Assembly (NCBI GenBank): GCA_024742275.1
Contig: JANSYS010000013.1
Location: forward strand, 27,704 to 91,703
Reading direction: 5' to 3'
Length of the DNA stretch: 64,000 nucleotides
DNA from: Alphaproteobacteria bacterium
GTDB taxonomy: Bacteria; Pseudomonadota; Alphaproteobacteria; Thalassobaculales; Thalassobaculaceae
Shown here: positions 35,925 through 48,282 of the stretch, piece by piece
Layout: the number at the start of each line of letters is the position of its first letter
How positions within the stretch are numbered: position 1 is the stretch's first letter
Translations under genes and position numbers: made by a program
The notes under the pieces: generated by a model
What the model was told of the DNA's origin: nothing
The model's database searches: none
Seen by the model: only the letters and a program-made list of their open reading frames with translations

Positions 35925-38900
35925 CTATTCAGCGCTTAGCCGCACCACCGCATGCCTGCCGCCGACCGCGTCATCTGCGATACGAAGCACATGGGAATGG
36001 TGGGTCAGCACGATCACCTGCGCTTCCTCGGCGAGATCCGCCAGCGCTTCGAGCATCGCACCAGTCCGCGTGTCGTCGGATGAACTGAGGATATCATCCA
36101 GGATCAGCGGCGGCGCCTGGCGGGCACGAGCGAGCTCGAGGTATCCCGCCATACGCAGGGCCAGAAATAGCTGGTGGCGCGTTCCCTCCGACAGAGCTTC
36201 GACCAGTTTGAGCGAGCCGTCTTTCGCTCGCGCTGCGAGCTTGTCGCCTTTGTCGCCCGGTTGGGTCACCAACTCCGGATACCGACTCTGCGTCATCCTC
36301 GCGAAGAACCGACCGGCCGCCTCCAGCATCGGTCCCTTGTTTTCCTGGCGGTAGCGCCCGAGCGCCCAGCTCAACGCCCTCTCGCCCGCTCGGATGCGCG
36401 TGTAGTCGGCGATCTGCTCGACCAAGTCGGAGGCTAGGATCTCGCGCTCCTGCTGCAGGCGCGCGATCTCGTCGGAACCCGACATTTTCTCAAACGCCCC
36501 CCGGGCAACAGCAGCCGCCTGTCCGGCTGAGTCACGGCGCGCCATGACTTGGTCCAGTTCCGCCTTTAGCTGCTCACGCTCGGTGTTCAGCTCGTCCTCG
36601 TCACTGTCATCGAGCATCTTGAGCGCCTCCTCGATCGACGTGGCGGAGAGTTCCTCGACGATCTCCCTTTCGCACTCGCCGACCGTGTTGTTCAGGCCAG
36701 CCCTCTTCACGCCGTCCCGCACCGCCAACATCAGGTCCGAAAATTCCGTTTCTCCGAATTTTGCGGCTAGGTCAGCCAACTCGGATCGCTTCTCCTCGGC
36801 CTTGACCTTCAGTTGCCCCAGGCTCTCGTCAAATCCAGCGATCCGCTCCTCGAGATCGGCCACGCTCCTGTCACGGGCGTCAGCGGCGTCCAGCCGCGAT
36901 TTCAGCTGATCGATAACGAGTAGGAAGTCGGCGCCGTGCAGGTCCTCAGGCGCTTGGAGATCCGTTGCGTCAAGGAATGCCTCGAAACCTTCCTTCACCC
37001 CGGCTTCGTCCACTTCGATCTGCTCGATGCGACGGCGGGCAGTTTTCAGATCGGCGCGGGCGCCGCTCAGGTCAGGCAACCGGTTCAGAATGCCCGACAC
37101 CTGATCGTGGCCGCTATCCTGCGGGATCCAGGTTTCCCTCAAGGCGGCCTCGAAATCCGCTTTCCAGGTCTCGACCGTCTCTGTGGCCTCTGATAGCTCG
37201 CTCTGCCGCTTTTTGACCGTGGCTACGGCGGTCGCCTTTGCCTTGAGGGCTGACTCGCGCTTGCGCTGGTGTTCCTTGAGTTCCTCCACGCATTGTTCGG
37301 CGAGGTTCTGTAGTGCAGAGAGCTTCATTTCCGCGGGCACCGATGCTCCGACGGCCGAGAGCGCCTCGGTGAGCCCAGCGACGTGCTCTGCAGCCGCTTC
37401 CTGCAGCGCTTTCGACTCTCGCTTCCTCGTTTCAATCTTCCTCAATGAGGAGGAGACAGACACCTTCGCTTCGATCAGCCGGCGCAGGCCGGAGATTCCG
37501 CTAACATTGACCTCGTCGGGGATAAGATCCGCGATCTCCTTGTCGACGCCGGCCTGACCGTCCTGCGCGGTCTCAAGCTCCTTCGCCAACCGGTTCATAG
37601 CCACCTTTTCCCGGTCGCGGTCGCGCATTGCGGCGTTCACTTCGCTCAGGCGGTCCGCATGGCGGATCCGGTCCTCGAAGACGCGGTCCGTATCAGCCAC
37701 CGCCCCGGAAAGGCGGGCGCGAAGATCGGCGACCTCATCTGCGGTGAGCGGCCCGTTGAATTCAGCGATCAGAGCGTCGCGGGCGGTCAGCAGCGCCTTA
37801 AGATCGGAGTCGGACGACCTTGCCATGTCGCCGAAGGACTGAATGCGCTCCTCGGCATTCACGTGGATATCCCGCCGTCGGGCGATGTCGCTCTGAATAC
37901 GGCCAACTTCGCTGCGCGCCTCTTCATATCGCCGCTGCAGATCCTCCACATCTCCATGATGGGGAAGCTCAAGGGTATCCAGCCATCCGGCAAATTCGAT
38001 GCCGATCCCAACACCGCCGAGGGTGATCTGCAACTCCTCCCGCAGCATCTCCTGAGACTTCGCGTTCTCTAGTTGGTCGGTCACGAGGTTTCGCTCCCTG
38101 CTCGCCTTGAGCAGGGCGGCTAGAGCCGACGGGTCCGCCGCCTCTTCGATGGAATCGAGTTCGGCCGACGCCGCCTCAAGGCTCTGCCTAGCGCTATCAA
38201 GTTCCCGCTCCGCAGCATGCAGGGCCGAGTTCGTTTCGGTGTGCAGCTTGATCAGGCCGGAAAGATGACTCACCTCCTGCGGCGTCAGGCCGAGATCCGC
38301 ACCGCCCCCTTCGATCGCGACATCCAGTTCGCCGAGGACGCGCTCGATCTTGTCCTGCGCCTCCTTCTCCTCGTCCTTACGGTTCGGGAGGGCCTGTCGG
38401 CGATCCCGGATCATGATCGCGCTGGCTGCGAAATCCTCAATCGCCGCCCGGTGCAGAGTGACGGAATCCGGTTGGGGAATTGCTGCGAGTTGCTCCTGGA
38501 GGGTGGCCCTGTTCTCGCTTGCCGCGGCGGCCCTCGCTTGGAGTGCGCTCATGTCCTGGACAACACCATTGAGCCGGTCCTGGTCCGCCTCGCTCGCAAC
38601 CTCTCCTTCGCCAAGCGTCTCGAGATCGTTGAGCGCGCGCAGGCGGTCGCGGTATGGCCTGAAGGCGGACAATCTGCCTTGGATCCGCGCGATCTGAGCG
38701 CCGAGCCTGACGAACTCTTCCTTGGCCTGCTCGAATGCACCGTTCTGGGCCTCCAGCTCCTTTCGGGTCGATTGATAGGCGTTATTCGACGTCTGGAGAT
38801 CGCGGATCTTGGCGTCGATCTCCTTGATCTGGTTCGACAACACCTTCGCTGTCGCGCTGTGCTTTCCGCTCCAGATGGCTGCAGCCTGTTCGTTCATGGC

Positions 38901-39398
38901 GTCGAGGCGGGCCGGCAGGTCCTGCAGTCCGGTGGTTCCGGCGAACAGGAGCTCGCCCAGACTTCCCTCTCCCCTTGAGATGGCCTCGCCGCCGGCGTCC
39001 AACTGCTCCCGGTTGACCGAGAAGGTCCGCTCGAACTCGGCACGGTCGAACCCATCCACCACCGCTGCGAAGGGGTTGTCCGCAAGGGGCCGGTCGCTCA
39101 CGTCGACCATGTCATCCCTGTGTTTCTTCAGCCGGTAGGCCTCGACCTGGCTCTGGGCGACGGTCGCCCGGGCGCCGACCTTGAGCATGCCCTGGGCGGC
39201 GAAGCCCATCTTCGACTGGTTGTGGAAGCGGAACAGCAGGTCGGAGATCGCCTCGCGGATCGTCGACTTCCCCGCCTCGTTCGGCCCGTAGATGATCTGG
39301 AGATCAGTCTCTCTTCCCGGAATGCCTGATTTCTGGAATTCCAGGCTTCTGCTGTCGAAATGACCGTAGCGGACCAGCTCCAGCGTCTCAAATCTCAT
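35925..39398 (-). CDS. SMC/SbcC-like AAA ATPase, YhaN-type (1157 aa)
   Basis: MRFETLELVRYGHF..IIYGPNEAGKST (Walker A), about 900 aa of coiled coil, LSEGTRHQL signature and PLILDDIL Walker B. The ATG at 39398 overlaps the upstream stop (ATGA). No CxxC hook seen. Confidence 0.88.
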   Translation of the reverse strand: MRFETLELVRYGHFDSRSLEFQKSGIPGRETDLQIIYGPNEAGKSTIREAISDLLFRFHNQSKMGFAAQGMLKVGARATVAQSQVEAYRLKKHRDDMVDVSDRPLADNPFAAVVDGFDRAEFERTFSVNREQLDAGGEAISRGEGSLGELLFAGTTGLQDLPARLDAMNEQAAAIWSGKHSATAKVLSNQIKEIDAKIRDLQTSNNAYQSTRKELEAQNGAFEQAKEEFVRLGAQIARIQGRLSAFRPYRDRLRALNDLETLGEGEVASEADQDRLNGVVQDMSALQARAAAASENRATLQEQLAAIPQPDSVTLHRAAIEDFAASAIMIRDRRQALPNRKDEEKEAQDKIERVLGELDVAIEGGGADLGLTPQEVSHLSGLIKLHTETNSALHAAERELDSARQSLEAASAELDSIEEAADPSALAALLKASRERNLVTDQLENAKSQEMLREELQITLGGVGIGIEFAGWLDTLELPHHGDVEDLQRRYEEARSEVGRIQSDIARRRDIHVNAEERIQSFGDMARSSDSDLKALLTARDALIAEFNGPLTADEVADLRARLSGAVADTDRVFEDRIRHADRLSEVNAAMRDRDREKVAMNRLAKELETAQDGQAGVDKEIADLIPDEVNVSGISGLRRLIEAKVSVSSSLRKIETRKRESKALQEAAAEHVAGLTEALSAVGASVPAEMKLSALQNLAEQCVEELKEHQRKRESALKAKATAVATVKKRQSELSEATETVETWKADFEAALRETWIPQDSGHDQVSGILNRLPDLSGARADLKTARRRIEQIEVDEAGVKEGFEAFLDATDLQAPEDLHGADFLLVIDQLKSRLDAADARDRSVADLEERIAGFDESLGQLKVKAEEKRSELADLAAKFGETEFSDLMLAVRDGVKRAGLNNTVGECEREIVEELSATSIEEALKMLDDSDEDELNTEREQLKAELDQVMARRDSAGQAAAVARGAFEKMSGSDEIARLQQEREILASDLVEQIADYTRIRAGERALSWALGRYRQENKGPMLEAAGRFFARMTQSRYPELVTQPGDKGDKLAARAKDGSLKLVEALSEGTRHQLFLALRMAGYLELARARQAPPLILDDILSSSDDTRTGAMLEALADLAEEAQVIVLTHHSHVLRIADDAVGGRHAVVRLSAE

Positions 39399-40687
39399 GA
39401 CCCATCCCCCTTGCTCGCAGCCGCCGCGGAAGCCACCGCCTCCGCTGCCATGGATTCGAGCCACCCGGCGATGTGGTCGGCGCTTTCCGGATCCAGGTCG
39501 GTTAGTGGGTTCAAGTGCCCCGGGTGTGCGCGAAGGCCCGGAGGCAACTTTGCGAGGATGGCCTCGAAGTCCTTGACCAGCTCCTTCACCAGGTCGCTGT
39601 CTGCGGTCGCACCGGTGCGGATCATGTCCGTCAGGTGCGCAAGTGTGCCTTTATCAATCTCCGCGCGCTGATTATCGCCGGCGGACGCAACGATGCCGAT
39701 CTTCTCGACGGCGACCCGATCGGTGCGGGCCTGAATGTTTGTCTGGATGAGATCGAGGAGATCGTCGCGGCCGCGCCGCACAGCTGGAACAAGTGCCCGC
39801 GGCACAGCGAGTTCAGGCCGCAGGAGCGCTCGACCATGGTCCGATGCGTCGATCAGAGTGCGCGCGATGTCTCCCGCCTCGGCCTGGATGTCGTTGAAAG
39901 ACTCGGCTGAGCTGAGATCGATCGGAACGCGCTCGAGAACGACCGCCGATGTGTCGAACCACTCGATGTTGATCCGGCCGTCAGACACTGTTCCTAGAAC
40001 AGCCCGTCCTTGCCCGGTCTCGCCCATGTCGCGTCCCTGCGGGATGCCCGGGTAGACGATCCAAGGCCGCTCAGGCGTCCCCTCCTGGAATACCTGGCTC
40101 TTGTGGACATGACCGAGGGCCCAGTAGTCGTAGCCTTTGTCCCCCAGTCTGGCTGGCGAGGTCGGCGCATAATCGGCATGCTCGGAGAATCCGCCGAGAG
40201 AGGTGTGCAGCATGCCAATATTCACCCATCCCTGAACCGGATCTGGGTAGCCTGGCGTCATATCCGCGGTGACACTGTTGTCCCTAAACGACGCGCCATG
40301 GATCGCAACCTCGTGTTCCTCGAAGCGATGGGTTGATGCCTTGGGCTTGAAGACGGTCAGTGTTTCAACGTCGGGGAATGGCGGCTTCGCCACCGTCTCG
40401 GCGTCGTGATTGCCGAGGATGATGAAGGTGTGAACACCGGCCTTGCCGAGGCGGCGCAAGCATTCGGCTAAGTAGAGGCCGGTGCGCATGTCCTTGGTCG
40501 AGCCGTCGTATAGGTCACCCGAGATCAGCAGCGCGGCGACCCTCTCCTCGATGGCCTTATCGACGATCCGCTCGAACGCCGCACGCGTCGCTACACCAAT
40601 AGCCTCGGCGAGATCGGCATTCCGCCGGCTCAGCGCCTTAAGCGGGCTGTCTAAGTGGAGGTCGGCGGTGTGGATGAAGCGGAACAT
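39395..40687 (-). CDS. Metallophosphoesterase DNA-repair exonuclease, SbcD/Mre11-like (YhaO-type)
   Basis: MFRFIHTADLHLD, SGDLYDG, ILGNHD and ALGHVH calcineurin-like motifs. Start chosen at the ATG at 40687. Confidence 0.88.
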   Translation of the reverse strand: MFRFIHTADLHLDSPLKALSRRNADLAEAIGVATRAAFERIVDKAIEERVAALLISGDLYDGSTKDMRTGLYLAECLRRLGKAGVHTFIILGNHDAETVAKPPFPDVETLTVFKPKASTHRFEEHEVAIHGASFRDNSVTADMTPGYPDPVQGWVNIGMLHTSLGGFSEHADYAPTSPARLGDKGYDYWALGHVHKSQVFQEGTPERPWIVYPGIPQGRDMGETGQGRAVLGTVSDGRINIEWFDTSAVVLERVPIDLSSAESFNDIQAEAGDIARTLIDASDHGRALLRPELAVPRALVPAVRRGRDDLLDLIQTNIQARTDRVAVEKIGIVASAGDNQRAEIDKGTLAHLTDMIRTGATADSDLVKELVKDFEAILAKLPPGLRAHPGHLNPLTDLDPESADHIAGWLESMAAEAVASAAAASKGDGS

Positions 40688-40984
40688 GACCTCTGAGCCT
40701 GCGGGGGATTTTGAGTGGCGTTTCAAGCATATCCTGAACAATTTTTGATAGTATCACTAAATGTGGCATTGTCATTTGGCGACCGGACGCAACCAGATCG
40801 GTATGGCATGGGGAAACCCCCATTGGATTGGGAAACGAGGCGTGGAGGGGGCCATGGAAGCGATCTCACTATAGGCATCTCCGTATATCAAGTCCGCATC
40901 TGTTCAGACCGAAGATAGACCACCTACTTGACGGGCTTCACCAGGATTGCAACGTAGACGGGCAATTTAGCCGGAGACTGGCGA

Positions 40985-43900
40985 GTGACAAGAGAAGAGA
41001 TCGAAAGCACCCTGTTGCGTGGCGGCGCGGTTCCGGTCGGTGATTCTTCCGGCGGTGAGATCTTATTGGCCGAACCGAACGCGCGGCGGGCCGCCTCCGT
41101 CCTGTTCGAGCAACTCCGCGGCGCATCGGCGGACGAGTTGCGCAATGACGATGACTTCTTCGAGGCACTCGAGACCGCGTTCTTGGCTGAAGATGATAAG
41201 GACACCAAATCGCCCGCGTCGCCTGAGGATCCGAGTGGCTTGGTCCGCGGCCCCACCAGCCAGCCTTCGAAGGTCTGGCGCCTCAAGCTGATCGAGACGC
41301 AGGGATTTGGTGGGCTGAACGCAGTTTCTGGCGACACCTTCAGGTTCGAGGTGGCAGGCCGGGACTTCTGTATCGAAGGCCAGAATGGAAGCGGCAAGAG
41401 CTCGCTCACCAACGCTGTGTTGTTCGCCATGACGGGTCAAATCCATCGCGACCAATTTGGCCTCGTCGATGCCAAACGCTGCGAGCCGGTGGCCGCCGAC
41501 AACGGAAAGACCATCGCCGAATGGCCCCCGATCGCCATTTACCCAGAAGATTGGGGTATCGACCGGCCGGATGTTGATGTTCAAGTTACATTGACCTTCA
41601 CCTGCGGAGACGATGACTGCACCGCCATCCGGCGCTTGCACGGCGCACCCGATAATTTGGCCGACGACCACAATATTGCCCCCGAACTCACCGGTGTACG
41701 GACGTTGATCGACGCCGGGCTGCTGATGCCGATGCGCGTCCAGCACATCCGGATGGCGAACCCGAACGACAACCAGTCTCTTCTAGCCCTGATCCGGCAG
41801 CTCATTGGCCTGGATCCGCTTATCCATGTTGCGGAGCTCGCAACGTCGCTTGGGCATGGCGGCCAGCGATTCCGAAAGTACGCCAAGGACAAGGATATCG
41901 GCGGACGGGTAGAACGGATCAACAAGCTCCTCGAGGGAGCCAATGAGGTTTTATCGGAGCAGGATCCGGACCTCGGAATTGAGATGGAGGTCGACGGGAC
42001 GACACCCGTCGCCGAAGAAGATCTGCGCCTATTGCAGGAGGCCGCGGAACGCGTTGAAAAACTTCAGGCCGATGGCTTCGAGGATCTCCGCAAACTGGCC
42101 TTTGATGAGTTCGATCCCGCCAACACCGAACACCAGGCGCGCGTGAGCCAGGCTGTCGCCGATCTGGCGACCGGCGTTGAAGACCTGCGGAAACCTGCGA
42201 ACGCTCCAGCGATTCTTCGCGACTTGAGAGTCCTATCGAGCAACGTCTCCGATGGGCACATCGACCGACTGCTGACTGCCCTATCGAAGGCGCGGCAGGA
42301 CCTTGAAGATGCCGAAATCTGGGCAGAGAAGCAGGAAACCGATGCTCGGCTTCGCCTGAAAGCCATAGCCGCACCGCACTTTCAGGACTGCGAAGATCCA
42401 TTGTGTCCATTGTGTGAACAGCCTTTGAAGATTCCGCAGCATACAACGTTGTTGACGGATCTGAAGGTTTTGACCAAGGACGCAGAAGCGGCGCAAACGC
42501 GCCTGGAGGATGCATGTCGGCGTATCCTGGATGACATAGTTCGCGCCCGGGACGAGGCTGTTCCAGAAGCATTCAGGAAAGTTCAGCGCTTCCGCGCGAA
42601 AGAGGAGTTCCGCGCCCACGTCGCCGCGATGTTGTTCGGTGACAACGATGCCGCCGATACGCTCCCAGGCCTTAAGGAGCGCGCGGATGGCATCCTACAA
42701 GCCGTTATTGGCCCGCTTGAGGAGTTTGAGTTCGGTGAGAATGTGCCTGAGCCGGAGAACGCGCCCTCGCGGATCCGGTGGATAGTCGATCACTTAGACG
42801 ATGTCTGCAGTGCGGCACAAAACTGGACTGACGAAACGCGTCAGCCTTACCGGGATGCCTGGTCAGGGTTGTTCGCCGAGGCGGAGGAAAATACCGCCCC
42901 TCTGTCATTGACGACCGAAATCGGAGCGTTGCAACGAACCATCGCCTCCATTGTTCCGTATCGCACCGCCGGCAAAAAGCTCGAAGACGTTATCAAGGAG
43001 ATCGCTGAATATAACGCCATCGTCAAACGCCAGATACTCCGCGACGCGATCGCCAAAAGCCTGTCGCCACTTAGAGAACTGATGATGTTGGTCAACCGGA
43101 CGACACAGCAGACCATAAACGATGTCTCCGGCTTGGTCGAACAAGTCCACGCTGAAATCTACAACTCCGAAGCCCTGCTCTACGACAAGACTGATGTGAA
43201 GGAGACGCGGAACAAACAATCCCTGTCGTTCCGTGGCCGCCTCGGCAAGGACCAGGACTGGACCATCGATGCTGCCGTGCTCGCCAACACGTCCTGGATG
43301 CGGGGAATTCTCTGGTCGTTTGTTTTTGCAATCCGGCAACGCGCCATTGAGAGTGCGGGTGGCTGCCCATTTCCGCTGGTGATGCTGGACGATCCGCAGA
43401 TCACATTCGACACCCGTAACCAGAAGGGTTGGGTTAAGTGGCTCGGCCTGTCCGACGGCCTACGCAAGGACCATCCAGTCCACATCGTGATCACAACCCA
43501 TGGCCACGAATTCGCTCAGGAGATGCAGGCCTCAAAGGGCGTCACAATGGGAGCGATAGAAACTGCCCGAAGACCTGGCGCCCCGGCACAACTCGTGCTC
43601 GCCGACTTCGCGGAAATTCGCTTCCAGCAGATGGAGGAGTTGAATTCGGACCCGAAAGCGCGCGAATTAATCTCGGCAATCCGGGTCTTGGCAGAGACCC
43701 TGCTGCGCTTCGCTTTGTCGGCGATCGACCCCAAGCGGGTGGAACGAAAAGACGCAAATATAGGAAGGTTGGTCGAGGAAATTGCACAAAGTCGTCAGAA
43801 TGGAGAGGCGCCGTTTACCGACGGTGTCTTCGAGCGCCTGATCAAACTCAAGGATGGCAACACCATTCGGTTCAGCGAGCTGAGCGAACCTCACCACAAA

Positions 43901-44890
43901 CTGACGGAAACGATCACGGTGCGAGAAGGTCGCCAGGCCTACAAATTCTGGAAAACCAGTCTCTTCCCAGCTCTTCACGCGATTTGGGAATCATATCGAT
44001 TCCTCCAGAAGACTGTATTCATCGACGGCGGAACCGTACGCTTGCCGGCCAACACCAACCATCAGCCGATCCGTTCGAACGATCTGGCGTCCGTAAGACC
44101 GGTGATCGTCGGTAGGGTTTCCGCCTACTCTGATGGACGCCTTGCGTCGGCGCTGCAGCTAGTACCCAGTAGTGACACCGAAGTCATCGACCTCCAGTCG
44201 AGAGCAGTCTATCGCCTCGAGAAGGACACGCTGTCACCGGTTGCCCAAGTCGGCGATTTCCTTCTCACCAGACTGGATCAGAAGACGACACACCGAAACT
44301 TAGTGATCGAGGACCGGGGGGATCATCTGATCGCCCGAAGACTGCTGGAAGACGACGGCAATAAGGGGTTCGCGGTGATGAGTGCCGCGTCCTCCAATCC
44401 GAAGGAGACGCAGAAAGCGGTCGTATCGCGCATGGAGGGTGCACGGCGTTTCAAGATTGCCGGCATCCTTTTCGCTTCCCAGACCCTTGCCGCAGGAGCC
44501 CTCGTCGACGGTCAGACCGAGGCCACCGCGTTGGACGCAACGGACCCAGCCGTGCAAACTTTGGTCGCCGGCACCGAGGTGTTCGAAGTCCAGGGGTCCA
44601 GTGCCGAGCCATTGGCGCTGAATGGTCAGTTTCTTCTCGCGAAGCCACCGTCACGGGACCTGTCGCGATCGATAGCGGATCTCGACGGAAAGCCGGTTAT
44701 CGCGGAGACGACAGACGGCGACGCCTACTTCAAGAGGCTCCGCAAGATCGCGGACAACATGGTCGCGCTCGAAAGCCTGGATAAGACCGGTCTTGAGAGT
44801 CTGATCGTACTGGAACTTGAGGAAGTGGTAGGCCGACCAGGCTTGCGACAACTGCGTGAGGTCGTCGGCGTCGTTTTCGACAGGGCTTGA
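40985..44890 (+). CDS. 1301-aa Rad50/RloC-like ABC-type ATPase with a coiled-coil CxxC hook and two C-terminal LexA/cI-like (peptidase S24-like) domains
   Basis: GTG start with GGAGA 7 nt upstream. Walker A GQNGSGKSS (aa 132-140), CPLC at aa 474-477 inside the coiled coil, Walker B PLVMLDDPQ (aa 797-805) and TTHG. C-terminal patterns are GDFLL..LIARRL..IAGILF and VQGSSAEP..GQFLLA..YFKRL..VVGVVF. Confidence 0.85.
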   Translation: MTREEIESTLLRGGAVPVGDSSGGEILLAEPNARRAASVLFEQLRGASADELRNDDDFFEALETAFLAEDDKDTKSPASPEDPSGLVRGPTSQPSKVWRLKLIETQGFGGLNAVSGDTFRFEVAGRDFCIEGQNGSGKSSLTNAVLFAMTGQIHRDQFGLVDAKRCEPVAADNGKTIAEWPPIAIYPEDWGIDRPDVDVQVTLTFTCGDDDCTAIRRLHGAPDNLADDHNIAPELTGVRTLIDAGLLMPMRVQHIRMANPNDNQSLLALIRQLIGLDPLIHVAELATSLGHGGQRFRKYAKDKDIGGRVERINKLLEGANEVLSEQDPDLGIEMEVDGTTPVAEEDLRLLQEAAERVEKLQADGFEDLRKLAFDEFDPANTEHQARVSQAVADLATGVEDLRKPANAPAILRDLRVLSSNVSDGHIDRLLTALSKARQDLEDAEIWAEKQETDARLRLKAIAAPHFQDCEDPLCPLCEQPLKIPQHTTLLTDLKVLTKDAEAAQTRLEDACRRILDDIVRARDEAVPEAFRKVQRFRAKEEFRAHVAAMLFGDNDAADTLPGLKERADGILQAVIGPLEEFEFGENVPEPENAPSRIRWIVDHLDDVCSAAQNWTDETRQPYRDAWSGLFAEAEENTAPLSLTTEIGALQRTIASIVPYRTAGKKLEDVIKEIAEYNAIVKRQILRDAIAKSLSPLRELMMLVNRTTQQTINDVSGLVEQVHAEIYNSEALLYDKTDVKETRNKQSLSFRGRLGKDQDWTIDAAVLANTSWMRGILWSFVFAIRQRAIESAGGCPFPLVMLDDPQITFDTRNQKGWVKWLGLSDGLRKDHPVHIVITTHGHEFAQEMQASKGVTMGAIETARRPGAPAQLVLADFAEIRFQQMEELNSDPKARELISAIRVLAETLLRFALSAIDPKRVERKDANIGRLVEEIAQSRQNGEAPFTDGVFERLIKLKDGNTIRFSELSEPHHKLTETITVREGRQAYKFWKTSLFPALHAIWESYRFLQKTVFIDGGTVRLPANTNHQPIRSNDLASVRPVIVGRVSAYSDGRLASALQLVPSSDTEVIDLQSRAVYRLEKDTLSPVAQVGDFLLTRLDQKTTHRNLVIEDRGDHLIARRLLEDDGNKGFAVMSAASSNPKETQKAVVSRMEGARRFKIAGILFASQTLAAGALVDGQTEATALDATDPAVQTLVAGTEVFEVQGSSAEPLALNGQFLLAKPPSRDLSRSIADLDGKPVIAETTDGDAYFKRLRKIADNMVALESLDKTGLESLIVLELEEVVGRPGLRQLREVVGVVFDRA

Positions 44891-45079
44891 ATATTGATCA
44901 GTTTGTTCCTCTGAGATCATTCGTACGTTCACCTTGGGCCGAACGTTCCTAAAGCATCGGACGTCCGCTTTGGGTCGACGGCAGATCGCCAGCATTCGAT
45001 GGATCGCCGATTGCCAACGTCGTTCCATCGGTTCTCAATGGTGCCGTGGGGGAGGTCGTTCCTATTGGAGGAAACGACT

Positions 45080-45718
45080 ATGCTTCCTGATACCAGCCTT
45101 TCAGAGACATCAGCTGTTCGCCCGGCACCCTGGAACAAGGGCCGTCTGGTCGGTCAGAAGCGTCCGCTGAAGCCCAAGGATGTCTGGGGCATCCGTGTGC
45201 GCCTTGAGATCAGCGGCAGCAAGCGGGATCTGGCACTGTTCAATCTGGCGATCGACAGCAAGCTGCGCGGATGCGACCTGGTCAGCTTGAAAGTGGAGGA
45301 CGTCCAGGTCAGCGGCCGTATTCGCGAACGGACCACGGTCCTCCAGCAGAAGACCGGACGCCCGGTTCAGTTCGAACTGACTGAGCCGACACGCAAGTCG
45401 GTCGAGGCATGGATCGACCATGCCGGCAGGCGTCCTGGCGACTACCTCTTCCCGAGCCGATGGAGGCTCAGTCCCCATCTGTCGCCACGACAGTATGCCC
45501 GGATCGTTCATACCTGGGTGGAGAGTGCCGGGCTCGACAGTTCGGCCTACGGGACCCACACGATGCGACGCACGAAAGCGGCCCAGATCTACCGCAAGAC
45601 CGGAAATCTGCGGGCCGTCCAGTTGCTGCTCGGCCATACAAAGCTTGAGAGCACCGTGCGGTATCTCGGCATCGAAGTGGACGATGCCCTGACGATCTCC
45701 GAGCAGATCGAGCTGTAG
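45080..45718 (+). CDS. Short tyrosine-type recombinase/integrase (212 aa)
   Basis: ATG at 45080 with a GGAGGA SD. Motifs RGCDLVSLKV, HTMRRTKA (HxxR) and LLGHTKLESTVRYLG (H..Y). Confidence 0.85.
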   Translation: MLPDTSLSETSAVRPAPWNKGRLVGQKRPLKPKDVWGIRVRLEISGSKRDLALFNLAIDSKLRGCDLVSLKVEDVQVSGRIRERTTVLQQKTGRPVQFELTEPTRKSVEAWIDHAGRRPGDYLFPSRWRLSPHLSPRQYARIVHTWVESAGLDSSAYGTHTMRRTKAAQIYRKTGNLRAVQLLLGHTKLESTVRYLGIEVDDALTISEQIEL

Positions 45719-45749
45719 GGCTGACGCGGGTCCTCCTGGCGGTCGCCTG

Positions 45750-46070
45750 TCAGTGGGCGGCCGCCAGCGGCCTAATGCTGCCTTCGATATCGCTTTTCTT
45801 CTCGCGGGCGGCACTGTCGAGCTCGTACCGAGCCTGGAGGTTCATCCAGAACTCGGCAGAGGTGCCGAAATAGCGCGCGAACCTCAAGGCCGTGTCGGCG
45901 GAGATCGCCCGCTCACCATGGAGAATGGCTGTGATCCGGTTCTTCGGCACGTGGAGGTCCTTCGACAGCCTGTAGGCCGACACTCCCAGGGGTTCCAGGA
46001 ACTCCTCGCGCAAGATGACGCCAGGATGCTCCAGGGGAATTGCTGCACCTGGTCTCTCTTCCAAGCTCAT
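45750..46070 (-). CDS. higA: HigA-family antitoxin (XRE HTH)
   Basis: HPGVILREEFLEPLGVSAYRLSKDLHVPKNRITAILHGERAISADTALRFARYFGTSAEFWMNLQ. Confidence 0.88.
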   Translation of the reverse strand: MSLEERPGAAIPLEHPGVILREEFLEPLGVSAYRLSKDLHVPKNRITAILHGERAISADTALRFARYFGTSAEFWMNLQARYELDSAAREKKSDIEGSIRPLAAAH

Positions 46071-46080
46071 GCTTCCCTCC

Positions 46081-46362
46081 TCAGTGATAGTCGACTAACT
46101 CGACATTCTCGGCACCGCCATCGGACCATCTGAAGCAAATCCGGTATTGGTCGTTGACCCGGACGCTGTACTGACCTTCGCGATCTCCCGAGAGCTTCTC
46201 CAACCGGTTCCCCGGCGGAACGCGAAGGTCTTCGACATCCCGGGCCGCATCGATCATCAGCAGCTTCCGCCGCGCCCGGCGCTGGATGTCGGGCCCGAAG
46301 CCGCGGACATAGGTCCCTTCGAAAACCGTGCGAGTGGCCGCGTCCCGGAAGCTTCTAATCAT
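46081..46362 (-). CDS. higB: HigB-family toxin (RelE/ParE superfamily, 'plasmid maintenance system killer')
   Basis: MIRSFRDAATRTVFEG...PPGNRLEKLSGDREGQYSVRVNDQYRICFRW; located upstream of higA. Confidence 0.88.
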   Translation of the reverse strand: MIRSFRDAATRTVFEGTYVRGFGPDIQRRARRKLLMIDAARDVEDLRVPPGNRLEKLSGDREGQYSVRVNDQYRICFRWSDGGAENVELVDYH

Positions 46363-46628: not shown

Positions 46629-46648
46629 CTATCCCATCCGAGTTCTAT
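46629..46648. repeat. Right copy of an imperfect direct repeat (candidate attR)
   Basis: CTATCCCATCCGAGTTCTAT, matching 31691..31716. It abuts and overlaps the ATG of the sigma gene. Confidence 0.35.
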
Positions 46649-47192
46649 GACGGCACATCGCGATCCTGCGGAGCTTTTCGTCGAGCATCGAGCGGATCTG
46701 GTGAAATACGCCACGCGGATCCTCGGTTCCCGCAGCAGTGCCGAGGACGTGGTGCAGGAGGCCTATCTGCGCTTCGCCCGCCACGCCGATGGCGGGGAGG
46801 CGCTCGGCGCGCGGGGCGACCGGATCCTGGAGCCGGTGCGCTACCTGTACCGGATCGTACGAAACCTCGCCTATGACTGGGGCCGGCGGCCGAGCATGCC
46901 GCTGGTCGGCGACCTGGATGACGGGCTGCTCGCCCGGGCCGCCAGCACCGTGACCAGCCCGGAGGAGAACCTGCGCTGGCGCCAGGATCTCGGCCGAGTC
47001 GAGCGGGCGCTGGACAGCCTGCCGGACCGCACCCGCCAAGCCTTCGAGATGCACCGGCTGGGCGGCTTGCCGCTAAAGGAGATCGCCGCCCGGCTCGACA
47101 TCTCGGTGACCCGAACCCACCAGCTCGTCAAGACCGCCCTCACCGTCTGCGCCGAGCAGCTCGAAGACGAGGCCGGTGAGGATGGCCGGTGA
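46647..47192 (+). CDS. ECF (FecI-like, iron-starvation) RNA polymerase sigma-70 family factor
   Basis: Region 2 (EDVVQEAYLRFAR...YLYRIVRNLAYDW) and region 4 (LPDRTRQAFEMHRLGGLPLKEIAARLDISVTRTHQLV). Confidence 0.88.
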   Translation: MTAHRDPAELFVEHRADLVKYATRILGSRSSAEDVVQEAYLRFARHADGGEALGARGDRILEPVRYLYRIVRNLAYDWGRRPSMPLVGDLDDGLLARAASTVTSPEENLRWRQDLGRVERALDSLPDRTRQAFEMHRLGGLPLKEIAARLDISVTRTHQLVKTALTVCAEQLEDEAGEDGR

Positions 47193-47283
47193 AAATAGAG
47201 GGTGAAAAACCGGGCGCCCCGCTCGTCATGAAGATTAGGCGCGCCGCATCCGGCCCGCTGCCGCTCCCGACAGGGGCGGTTCC

Positions 47284-48282
47284 GTGACACGCGAAGAGTC
47301 CTCGATGGAGAACGGACGGCTGCAGCGGGATCCCGTCTGGGACCAGGCGCTGGACTGGCTTCTGGCGGTGCAGGAGCGACCGCAGGACGTCCGGCTGCGC
47401 ACCGAGCTGGAGACTTGGCTGGCTGCCGATCCCCGTCACCGGGCCGCCTATGACAAGGCGCAGCGGGTCTGGACCCTCACCGGCGATGTCGCCCCAATCC
47501 CCGAAACGCAGGAAGCTCCCGGGAGCGGCACCGTCGTTCCCTTCAAACCCCGGCGTCCGGTGCGCCGTCGCGCGCTTGCCGCCGGAACGCTGGCCGCCTG
47601 CCTGGCCTTCCTGGTCCTGCTCGGTCCGGTGCAGCAGCTACTCGACGGGGCCGACCTGTCCTCGCCCACCGGCGAGCTGGTCGCCAGCCCCCAGCCCGAC
47701 GGCAGCGTCATCATCCTGAACGCCGACAGCGCCATCCGCACCGACTTCACCGGCACCCGCCGCCAGGTCGTGCTGGTCGAGGGCGAGGCGTTCTTCCAGG
47801 TCACCCGCGACAAGACCCGGCCCTTTGCCGTCCAGGCTGCCGACACGGTGGTCACGGTCACCGGCACCGCCTTCGGCACCCGGCTCGGTGCCGACGACGT
47901 TATGGTCGAGGTCGAGGAAGGATCGGTCGCCGTCGCCACTCCCGGCCGCCCCGAGCCGGTTCGGCTGACACCCGGCGCTCGGCTCTCCGTCGACCGGACC
48001 ACGGGTGCGGTGCGGGTGACCGCCGTCCCCACCAGCCATATCGCCGCGTGGCGCCGCCATCTGCTGATCGCCGAAGGCGAACGTCTGGGCGACGTGCTCG
48101 ATCGCATCCGACCGCATTACAGCGGCGCGATCCTCACCACCGATACCGCCTTGCTGGACCGGCCGGTCAGTGGCGTCTTCGACCTGCGCCGGCCGCGGGA
48201 GGCCCTGCGGGCGGCAGCGACCGCTCGTGCCGCCTCGGTCTACGAGATCACACCCCTGCTGGCCGTCGTGGTGGCCGACTGA
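47284..48282 (+). CDS. FecR-family anti-sigma / transmembrane sensor
   Basis: N-terminal anti-sigma region (DQALDWLLAVQERP), a single TM helix and a periplasmic FecR domain. GTG at 47284, or ATG at 47305. Confidence 0.85.
   Translation: MTREESSMENGRLQRDPVWDQALDWLLAVQERPQDVRLRTELETWLAADPRHRAAYDKAQRVWTLTGDVAPIPETQEAPGSGTVVPFKPRRPVRRRALAAGTLAACLAFLVLLGPVQQLLDGADLSSPTGELVASPQPDGSVIILNADSAIRTDFTGTRRQVVLVEGEAFFQVTRDKTRPFAVQAADTVVTVTGTAFGTRLGADDVMVEVEEGSVAVATPGRPEPVRLTPGARLSVDRTTGAVRVTAVPTSHIAAWRRHLLIAEGERLGDVLDRIRPHYSGAILTTDTALLDRPVSGVFDLRRPREALRAAATARAASVYEITPLLAVVVAD

Follow-up and report, generated by a model that had tools for sequence, protein, structure and literature searches.

The 64,000-nucleotide stretch analyzed here (the window, from contig JANSYS010000013.1 of an alphaproteobacterium of the Thalassobaculaceae) carries on its + strand a gene at 40985..44890 that, according to the list of open reading frames (ORFs), has a GTG start and encodes a protein of 1301 amino acids. 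This protein is composed, in order, of an N-terminal region, a Rad50-like ABC ATPase bearing a coiled coil and a zinc hook, a helical RloC/HEPN-like domain, and a tandem S24-like module. It thereby ends in two LexA-type folds, one of which is dead and the other of which has an invariant Ser/Lys active site. S24 peptidases are the self-cleaving switches of repressors (LexA and phage cI) and of UmuD, and RloC and PrrC are ATPase-gated suicide tRNases. In LexA the scissile bond is A84-G85, with S119 and K156 forming the active site; the equivalents in lambda cI are Ala111-Gly112, Ser149, and Lys192. A prior sequence-only reading of the window gave these reference residues correctly and proposed that the last domain cleaves itself at a LexA-like Ala-Gly bond. 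Its residue numbering, coordinates, and spacings were exact when recounted on ORF 40985..44890. Ala1170-Gly1171 is encoded by gca gga (44492..44497), Gly1204-Ser1205-Ser1206 by ggg tcc agt (44594..44602, with tcc agt at 44597..44602), and Lys1250 by aag (44732..44734). Ala1170 precedes Ser1205 and Ser1206 by 35 and 36 residues, respectively, and Lys1250 follows Ser1206 and Ser1205 by 44 and 45.

Conservation was assessed in several sets of homologs. A first search returned 82 homologs, with named sources in Alphaproteobacteria, Gammaproteobacteria, and Acidobacteria; 70 of these are full length (~1290–1300 amino acids) and make up the close set, which splits into a clade of 45–82% identity and a clade of ~30% identity. 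A profile of the module, searched against 1.84 billion cluster representatives, matched at least 378 clusters (50% identity) at E ≤ 1e-3, and among the representatives of these 378 clusters the module is nearly always C-terminal, in proteins of ~1250–1390 amino acids. The diverse module set consists of 75 representatives of 50%-identity clusters in which all key columns are covered, and the diverse full-length alignment of 63 sequences with identities to the query down to 17%. A survey of [AC]G dipeptides used 112 representatives, 27 diverse homolog segments were used for the Pfam S24 test, and 27 aligned homologs as input for AlphaFold2 (AF2). Short matches to the module (260–460 amino acids), considered as stand-alone parts of split genes, begin inside conserved domains and look like fragments instead.

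The distal domain of the module (residues 1179–1301; 44519..44887, + strand), which is the apparently catalytic one, has a genuine LexA/S24 fold. The Pfam family Peptidase_S24 (PF00717) covers residues 1199–1268; the whole protein scores below threshold (18.1 bits), and the isolated C-terminal 266–282 amino acids match with an E-value of 5e-5 and 23.4 bits (cutoff 23.3). Eight of the 27 diverse homolog segments also match PF00717, the best with an E-value of 9.8e-7, and there is a weak match to a CI-like repressor in PHROGs. Comparison by hhalign of the distal family alignment with LexA, UmuD, and cI set VFEVQG-S-S1206-AEP on LLRVSG-M-S119-MKD and FFK1250RL on TVK156RL, such that G1204, S1206, and K1250 fall on LexA G117, S119, and K156. 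The AF2 model of residues 1020–1301, computed from 27 aligned homologs, has a mean predicted local distance difference test score (pLDDT) of 83.8 and a predicted template modeling score (pTM) of 0.85. The top 25 matches to this model found by Foldseek in the Protein Data Bank (PDB) are all C-terminal domains of LexA or lambda cI, with probabilities of 0.89–1.00 (e.g., LexA 1jhe_A, probability 1.00, 103 columns, root-mean-square deviation [rmsd] 3.2 Å, 22% sequence identity). The best alignments of the core extend over ~103 columns at an rmsd of 2.7–3.2 Å. The S24 relationship is visible to Pfam, hhalign, and fold comparison only.

The presumed catalytic residues of the distal domain are located in two motifs, G1204-S-S1206-A-E-P1209 (44594..44611, + strand; Ser1206 at 44600..44602) for the nucleophile and F-K1250-R-L-R (+ strand) for the general base. 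In the close set, G1204, S1206, A1207, E1208, P1209, and R1251 are conserved in 70 of 70 sequences and K1250 in 69. The distal motifs G-x-Ser1206-[A/M]-x-Pro and Lys1250-Arg also count as invariant among the 75 diverse representatives (S1206, P1209, and K1250, 75/75; G1204 and R1251, 74/75). Position 1205, on the other hand, is occupied by R, D, E, Q, or S, which identifies Ser1206 as the nucleophile; the earlier naming of Ser1205/Ser1206 as candidates is narrowed to the second of these. The residues of the canonical G-D-S-M motif do occur in part of the set: Asp at 1205 in 16 representatives and Met at 1207 in eight. The interval between Ser and Lys contains a short helix (residues 1226–1233) in the AF2 model. 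The placement of Ser and Lys, as judged from the alignments, is far beyond chance, and the earlier assignment of the last domain to the LexA/S24 type, with Ser and Lys at LexA-equivalent positions, is borne out by Pfam, hhalign, Foldseek, and conservation in 75 of 75 representatives. We consider it likely that the distal domain works as a Ser-Lys peptidase.

The proximal domain (residues ~1039–1163; 44099..44473, + strand) is a degenerate S24-like domain whose strand pattern in the AF2 model repeats that of the distal domain. By motif parallel, Thr1082 (44228..44230, + strand) occupies the position of the nucleophile and Arg1118 (44336..44338, + strand) that of the general base. The sequence T1082-L-S-P-V-A (consensus T-L-E-P-V-A, or more broadly T-L-E/S-P-V-A) parallels distal S1206-A-E-P-[IL]-A, and A1117-R1118-R1119 parallels F-K1250-R1251. 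Thr1082 is conserved in 70/70 sequences of the close set and 58/75 of the diverse set, in which the others have N, S, A, or V, and Arg1118 in 70/70 and 72/75, respectively. The presence of conserved Thr and Arg at the dyad positions agrees with the proposal that this domain is a noncatalytic duplicate with Arg in place of Lys. The proximal Ser, previously called ambiguous, can be described more exactly: a true nucleophile Ser is absent, Thr1082 being in its place, and nearby Ser1084 is unconserved. The duplication was not detected when the proximal and distal domains were compared by hhalign; it is deduced from the shared motifs (T/S-x-E-P-[VI]-A, G-D, [RK]-R, and G-[IV]-x-F) together with the repeated strand pattern.

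A strand resembling the cleavage-site region of LexA is located at the start of the proximal domain (G1043-R-V-S-A1047-Y-S-D-G-R1052; 44111..44140, + strand; Ala1047 at 44123..44125). Its consensus, G-R-[AV]-[AS]-A-x-[ST]-D-G-R, compares with G-R-V-A-A-G-E-P in LexA, in which the cut falls between the last Ala and Gly. Ala1047 is conserved in 70/70 sequences of the close set and 74/75 of the diverse set, and Gly1051 in 70/70 and 72/75; G1043 and D1050 are each found in 69/70 of the close set. Ala1047 precedes Thr1082 by exactly 35 residues, as A84 precedes S119 in LexA. In the AF2 model, residues 1040–1046 form a strand that is followed by a loop at 1050–1055 with pLDDT below 50. This loop (44132..44149) and the Ser loop at 1206–1209 (44600..44611) are the only internal stretches with such values. 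The low confidence at these two sites may reflect a mobile substrate strand and active site, or model uncertainty alone. The conserved substrate-like strand is thus found in the dead fold, and the conserved dyad in the fold that has no such strand.

The two domains are joined by a linker (residues 1164–1178, ASQTLAAGALVDGQT; 44474..44518, + strand), which holds Ala1170-Gly1171. Its N-terminal boundary is set by R-F-K-I-A-G1160-I-L-F1163, which is the last β-strand of the proximal domain as seen from AF2 secondary structure and from sequence parallels to the terminal A-V-G-V-I-R of LexA and to the terminal V-V-G-V-V-F of the protein itself. The segment K-I-A-G1160-I-L-F-A1164 was also considered as a cleavage strand of the distal domain, but AF2 and the parallel with C-terminal V-V-G-V-V-F assign it to this last proximal strand. 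From F1163 to the invariant E1179, the linker is 9–15 residues long (mode 12–13), hypervariable, and without a conserved motif; it is composed of 12% Pro, 12% Ser, 11% Gly, and 10% Ala and is also rich in Asp. Relative to the distal core, the linker occupies the position of the LexA cleavage-site region, which is why the spacing of Ala1170, 36 residues before Ser1206 and nine before E1179, looks right.

The Ala1170-Gly1171 pair itself is not conserved. The corresponding columns in the close set are AG in 6/70 and PG in 40/70, with x-Pro in the ~30%-identity clade; taken singly, Ala1170 is kept in 7/70 (Pro in 41) and Gly1171 in 55/70 (Pro in the ~30%-identity clade). The 82%-identical ortholog (as TAG) and a few other lineages retain AG. 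In the diverse set, the Gly1171 column is a gap in 46 of 75 sequences, and a scan of the 63-sequence full-length alignment found no small residue followed by Gly ([ACS]-G) conserved at 60% or more outside the Walker A motif. The protein has seven AG dipeptides, three of them within its last 150 residues, and when the last 282 amino acids were shuffled, an AG 33–38 residues upstream of Ser arose in 4% of trials. A dipeptide [AC]G occurs 29–45 residues upstream of Ser in 24% of the 112 representatives versus ~11% expected, a roughly twofold enrichment; its positions are scattered, and the other 76% have none in this region. In the AF2 model the linker is a coil and lacks the hairpin and β-bridges that a LexA cleavage-site region has when docked. 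The occurrence of an Ala-Gly at a LexA-like offset is not clearly beyond chance for this sequence. The sequence-only reading, which had named this as the scissile bond and nonconservation among homologs as grounds for giving it up, does not hold on this point (AG in 6/70, hypervariable linker), while the conservation it looked for in Ser and Lys is complete (75/75 each). Cleavage, if any, probably does not use a conserved Ala-Gly of the linker, and a cut at Ala1170 in this particular protein has a slim chance.

The N-terminal 850 residues constitute an ABC/SMC-type ATPase with a long helical insert. The Walker A motif, G132-Q-N-G-S-G-K-S-S140 (41378..41404, + strand), lies in a region matched by Pfam SMC_N, AAA_23, and AAA_29 (residues 115–157), and its G132, N134, G135, G137, K138, and S140 are each at least 90% conserved in the 63 diverse full-length homologs. 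In the same alignment, the Walker B/D-loop motif L-V-M-L-D802-D803-P-Q-x-T-F-D809 (43376..43411, + strand) has D802 in 62/63, D803 in 61/63, P804 and Q805 in 57/63 each, and D809 in 63/63 sequences. Within the coiled-coil insert is a zinc-hook motif of the Rad50/RloC CxxC type, C474-P-L-C477 (42404..42415, + strand), recognized by its conservation in the close set (C474 and C477, 70/70; P475, 69/70), which extends to the diverse full-length alignment. The assignment as an ATPase is supported by weak Rad50 profile matches. Weak matches were also found to an SbcC-like PHROG (residues 333–688, 1e-9) and to LmuB in PADLOC (residues 360–848, 2.9e-10).

Between the ATPase and the module is a domain of ~130 residues (~875–1007; 43607..44005, + strand) that is all helical in its AF2 model (pLDDT 75.9). 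It has two invariant elements, R900-x3-E904 (43682..43696, + strand) and H970-H971 (43892..43897, + strand), the latter preceded by S, A, or P. R900, E904, and H971 are found in 63/63 diverse homologs, and K/R908 in 48/63. The anticodon-nuclease triad of RloC and PrrC is Arg-x3-Glu-x36-52-His, often with Ser before the His (PMC2610378), and the nuclease domains of both proteins have been classed as HEPN (PMC3710099). RloC joins such a nuclease to a Rad50-like ABC ATPase that carries a CxxC zinc hook, and is activated by ATP and DNA ends (PMC2610378, PMC3458546). The helical domain is on these motifs a putative RloC/PrrC-like HEPN anticodon-nuclease domain. A profile of the helical domain found only two fragments in a set of 5.8 billion proteins. 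With its invariant CPLC hook and R-x3-E...H-H, the whole protein resembles RloC with an extra protease tail.

The gene is solitary, horizontally mobile, and often located in defense islands. An Erythrobacter homolog adjoins Gabija, restriction-modification (RM) systems, toxin-antitoxin pairs, and integrases; others adjoin BREX brxABC, or a ubiquitin-like E1/E2 system with a type IIG RM system, or lie within a prophage-like region, and elsewhere the gene is found between housekeeping genes. No conserved partner gene was found in the eight loci compared. The G+C content of the gene is 56–60%, as against 62–71% in its flanks.

We interpret the protein as an RloC-like effector to which a LexA-type proteolytic switch has been added, a reading that we give a probability of about 0.5. 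The C-terminal module would act in the manner of LexA, irreversibly changing the state of the protein once the ATPase senses a trigger. Candidate triggers would be DNA ends (with ATP), as for RloC, or possibly activated RecA on single-stranded DNA (RecA*-ssDNA), as for LexA, and the outcome would be that the effector domain, a putative RNase, is freed or unmasked. Even odds seem right for the step on which this depends, that the distal peptidase acts on its own polypeptide, either in cis or between protomers. If self-cleavage occurs, a cut between Ala1047 and Tyr1048 is a better family-wide candidate than one at Ala1170, and still a tentative one. The live distal site might receive the Ala1047 strand from within its own pseudo-dimer or, in a UmuD-like trans cleavage, from a second protomer, with head engagement or zinc-hook pairing bringing the two protomers into contact. 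The mechanism in its full form, in which the dead proximal fold supplies the Ala1047 strand, the live distal fold supplies the dyad, and self-cleavage upon sensing of DNA ends or RecA* in phage infection irreversibly unleashes a suicide tRNase as an abortive-infection effector, is unlikely to be right in every part.

A number of observations weigh against this reading. As regards the fold, none of the Foldseek E-values is below 1e-3 (4e-3 to 9e-2), the Pfam S24 score is just at threshold, and in the AF2 model the pLDDT of the Ser loop falls below 50. The HMMER profile of the module recovered no LexA from PDB sequences, and phmmer and HMMER profiles of the module and the helical domain found nothing relevant among PDB chains. 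As regards the substrate strand, Ala1047 is followed by Y, L, F, K, A, or E and never predominantly by Gly. The substitution G85D blocks cleavage of LexA, and a bulky P1' residue after Ala1047 would therefore need a differently shaped S1' pocket. Furthermore, the LexA topology has the strand fold onto its own active site, which here is the dead one, so that Ala1047 may be purely structural. As regards the effector, the spacing from Glu to His is 60–77 residues, versus 36–52 in RloC, and no RloC, PrrC, or AAA_13 match was found in Pfam, PADLOC, or NCBIfam. The Foldseek matches with the best template modeling (TM) scores are HEPN domains (2hsb, TMt 0.49; 3o10, TMt 0.47) and are nonsignificant. 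The protein appears to be RloC-like in architecture and is not a demonstrated member of that family, the link being one of motif and architecture.

Other readings of the module account for part of the same evidence. The distal S24 domain could act in trans, as a protease or sensor whose substrate is a different protein, for example one of a phage or a regulator of the host, with the proximal domain serving as an adaptor. Such a role would suit an invariant dyad in a family that conserves no self-site with Gly at P1', and a distal domain that has no conserved cleavage-site strand of its own; a solitary gene in defense islands must also combine sensing and effect in one chain. We nevertheless hold it to be improbable, as it leaves the conserved LexA-like Ala1047 strand unexplained, and to our knowledge all characterized S24 peptidases (LexA, UmuD, and phage repressors) cut either their own chain or that of their dimer partner. 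Alternatively, the module may have no proteolytic function, the tandem folds mimicking a LexA or UmuD' dimer in order to bind the RecA* groove, repair proteins, or the protein's own head, with Ser and Lys kept for binding or structure. That the fold survives loss of the dyad is evident from the proximal domain, the pTM of 0.85 speaks for a fixed pseudo-dimer, and no canonical Ala-Gly site is conserved. The pattern of conservation is nonetheless that of one catalytic and one noncatalytic domain, with G-x-S-[AM]-x-P and K-R invariant in the distal domain (75/75) and their proximal equivalents drifted (T/N/S/A/V and R/G), and we regard a purely binding role as having low probability. The least well surviving is cleavage by the distal domain in cis at Ala1170-Gly1171, severing the last domain upon RecA* or high pH, which despite the suitable position of the linker is quite improbable given Pro at P1 in 41/70 sequences and a variable, Pro-rich coil around the bond.

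A LexA-type switch on an RloC-like effector would combine features of several known systems. With LexA, UmuD, and cI (MEROPS S24, PF00717), the module shares the fold as detected by Foldseek and the G-x-S-[A/M]-x-P and [F/V]-K-R-L motifs, and the proximal G-R-V-S-A strand resembles G-R-V-A-A of LexA with the same 35-residue spacing. Unlike in these proteins, two copies are covalently joined, one with Thr and Arg for Ser and Lys, and neither an Ala-Gly nor a Cys-Gly bond is conserved. Instead of following an N-terminal DNA-binding repressor domain, as in LexA and cI, the module is fused C-terminally to a 1000-amino acid ATPase-effector, and its Ser and Lys are separated by 44 residues rather than the 37 of LexA. 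The self-cleavage of UmuD2 in trans, in which the strand of one S24 fold is cut by the site of a partner fold, is a conceptual analogue, although here a covalent link joins the folds and the dyad is confined to one of them.

RloC, reportedly described by Davidov and Kaufmann in 2008 and by Klaiman et al. in 2012, likewise has an ABC head into which a long helical stretch containing an invariant CxxC is inserted, followed by a helical R-x3-E...(S)-H domain, and is a solitary gene with a GTG start that is often near RM or other defense genes and mobile elements. It is smaller (700–800 amino acids) than the protein studied here, in which a tandem S24 module of ~280 amino acids is added, the Glu-to-His spacing is longer, the RNase is putative, and RloC and PrrC models give no match. 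The likeness to Lamassu LmuB and to SbcC/Rad50 consists of weak profile matches over the P-loop and coiled-coil regions. Unlike in those systems, the eight loci show no conserved LmuA/LmuC or SbcD/Mre11 partner beside the gene, and the SbcD-like gene upstream in the window pairs with an AAA_27 ATPase of its own.

No description of an S24/LexA-like fusion with SMC, an ABC ATPase, HEPN, or RloC was found in the literature searched, and no curated family for the S24-tailed architecture in Pfam, PADLOC, or NCBIfam. What appears to be new is the combination, in a single chain, of an S24 pseudo-dimer having one live and one dead fold with an RloC-type ATPase; both kinds of component are already known. 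The architecture is spread over Proteobacteria and Acidobacteria. If the switch reading is correct, the protein would represent a new coupling of DNA-damage or DNA-end sensing to irreversible activation of an effector in phage defense, fusing SOS-style signaling and anticodon-nuclease defense in one polypeptide. It would also provide a tractable single-protein system for studying how S24 active sites are gated without a canonical Ala-Gly. In practice, Ser1206, Lys1250, and Ala1047 are of interest besides Gly1171, and an Ala-Gly cut should not be presumed.

In the window, the region directly downstream of the gene (44999..46362) contains a short ORF (239 amino acids) of the Phage_integrase family and then, on the - strand, genes for a HigA-like HTH_3 antitoxin (45750..46070) and a HigB toxin (46081..46362). 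Together with the dip in G+C content to 56–60% at 40–45 kb, the integrase ORF and HigBA suggest a small acquired island. Beyond it, at 46647..48282, are an extracytoplasmic function (ECF) sigma factor (Sigma70_r2/r4) and a FecR/DUF4880 anti-sigma-type protein; the return of G+C content to ~70% indicates that this is probably native chromosome. Upstream, at 35925..40741 on the - strand, is a divergent pair consisting of a 1179-amino acid AAA_27/SMC-like ATPase and a 448-amino acid metallophosphoesterase (SbcD/Mre11-like, of the YhaN/YhaO type). This pair is also beside the 82%-identical ortholog (locus L001) and at no other locus, and is therefore probably not a functional partner.

Only two loci, closely related and both of the ~30%-identity clade, have a GNAT-like gene (158–173 amino acids) just downstream of the homolog (L002, 13878..14399; L004, 11982..12461). 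The two copies are 75% identical and have weak Pfam Acetyltransf matches. L006 and L007 do not carry the gene, which may thus be an accessory of one lineage or reflect no more than common descent. Lastly, the 82%-identical ortholog is followed, at a distance of 3.4 kb, by a gene with an ArdC N-terminal domain (L001, 17349..17663). The RloC paper reports two RloC orthologs linked to the anti-restriction factor ArdC.

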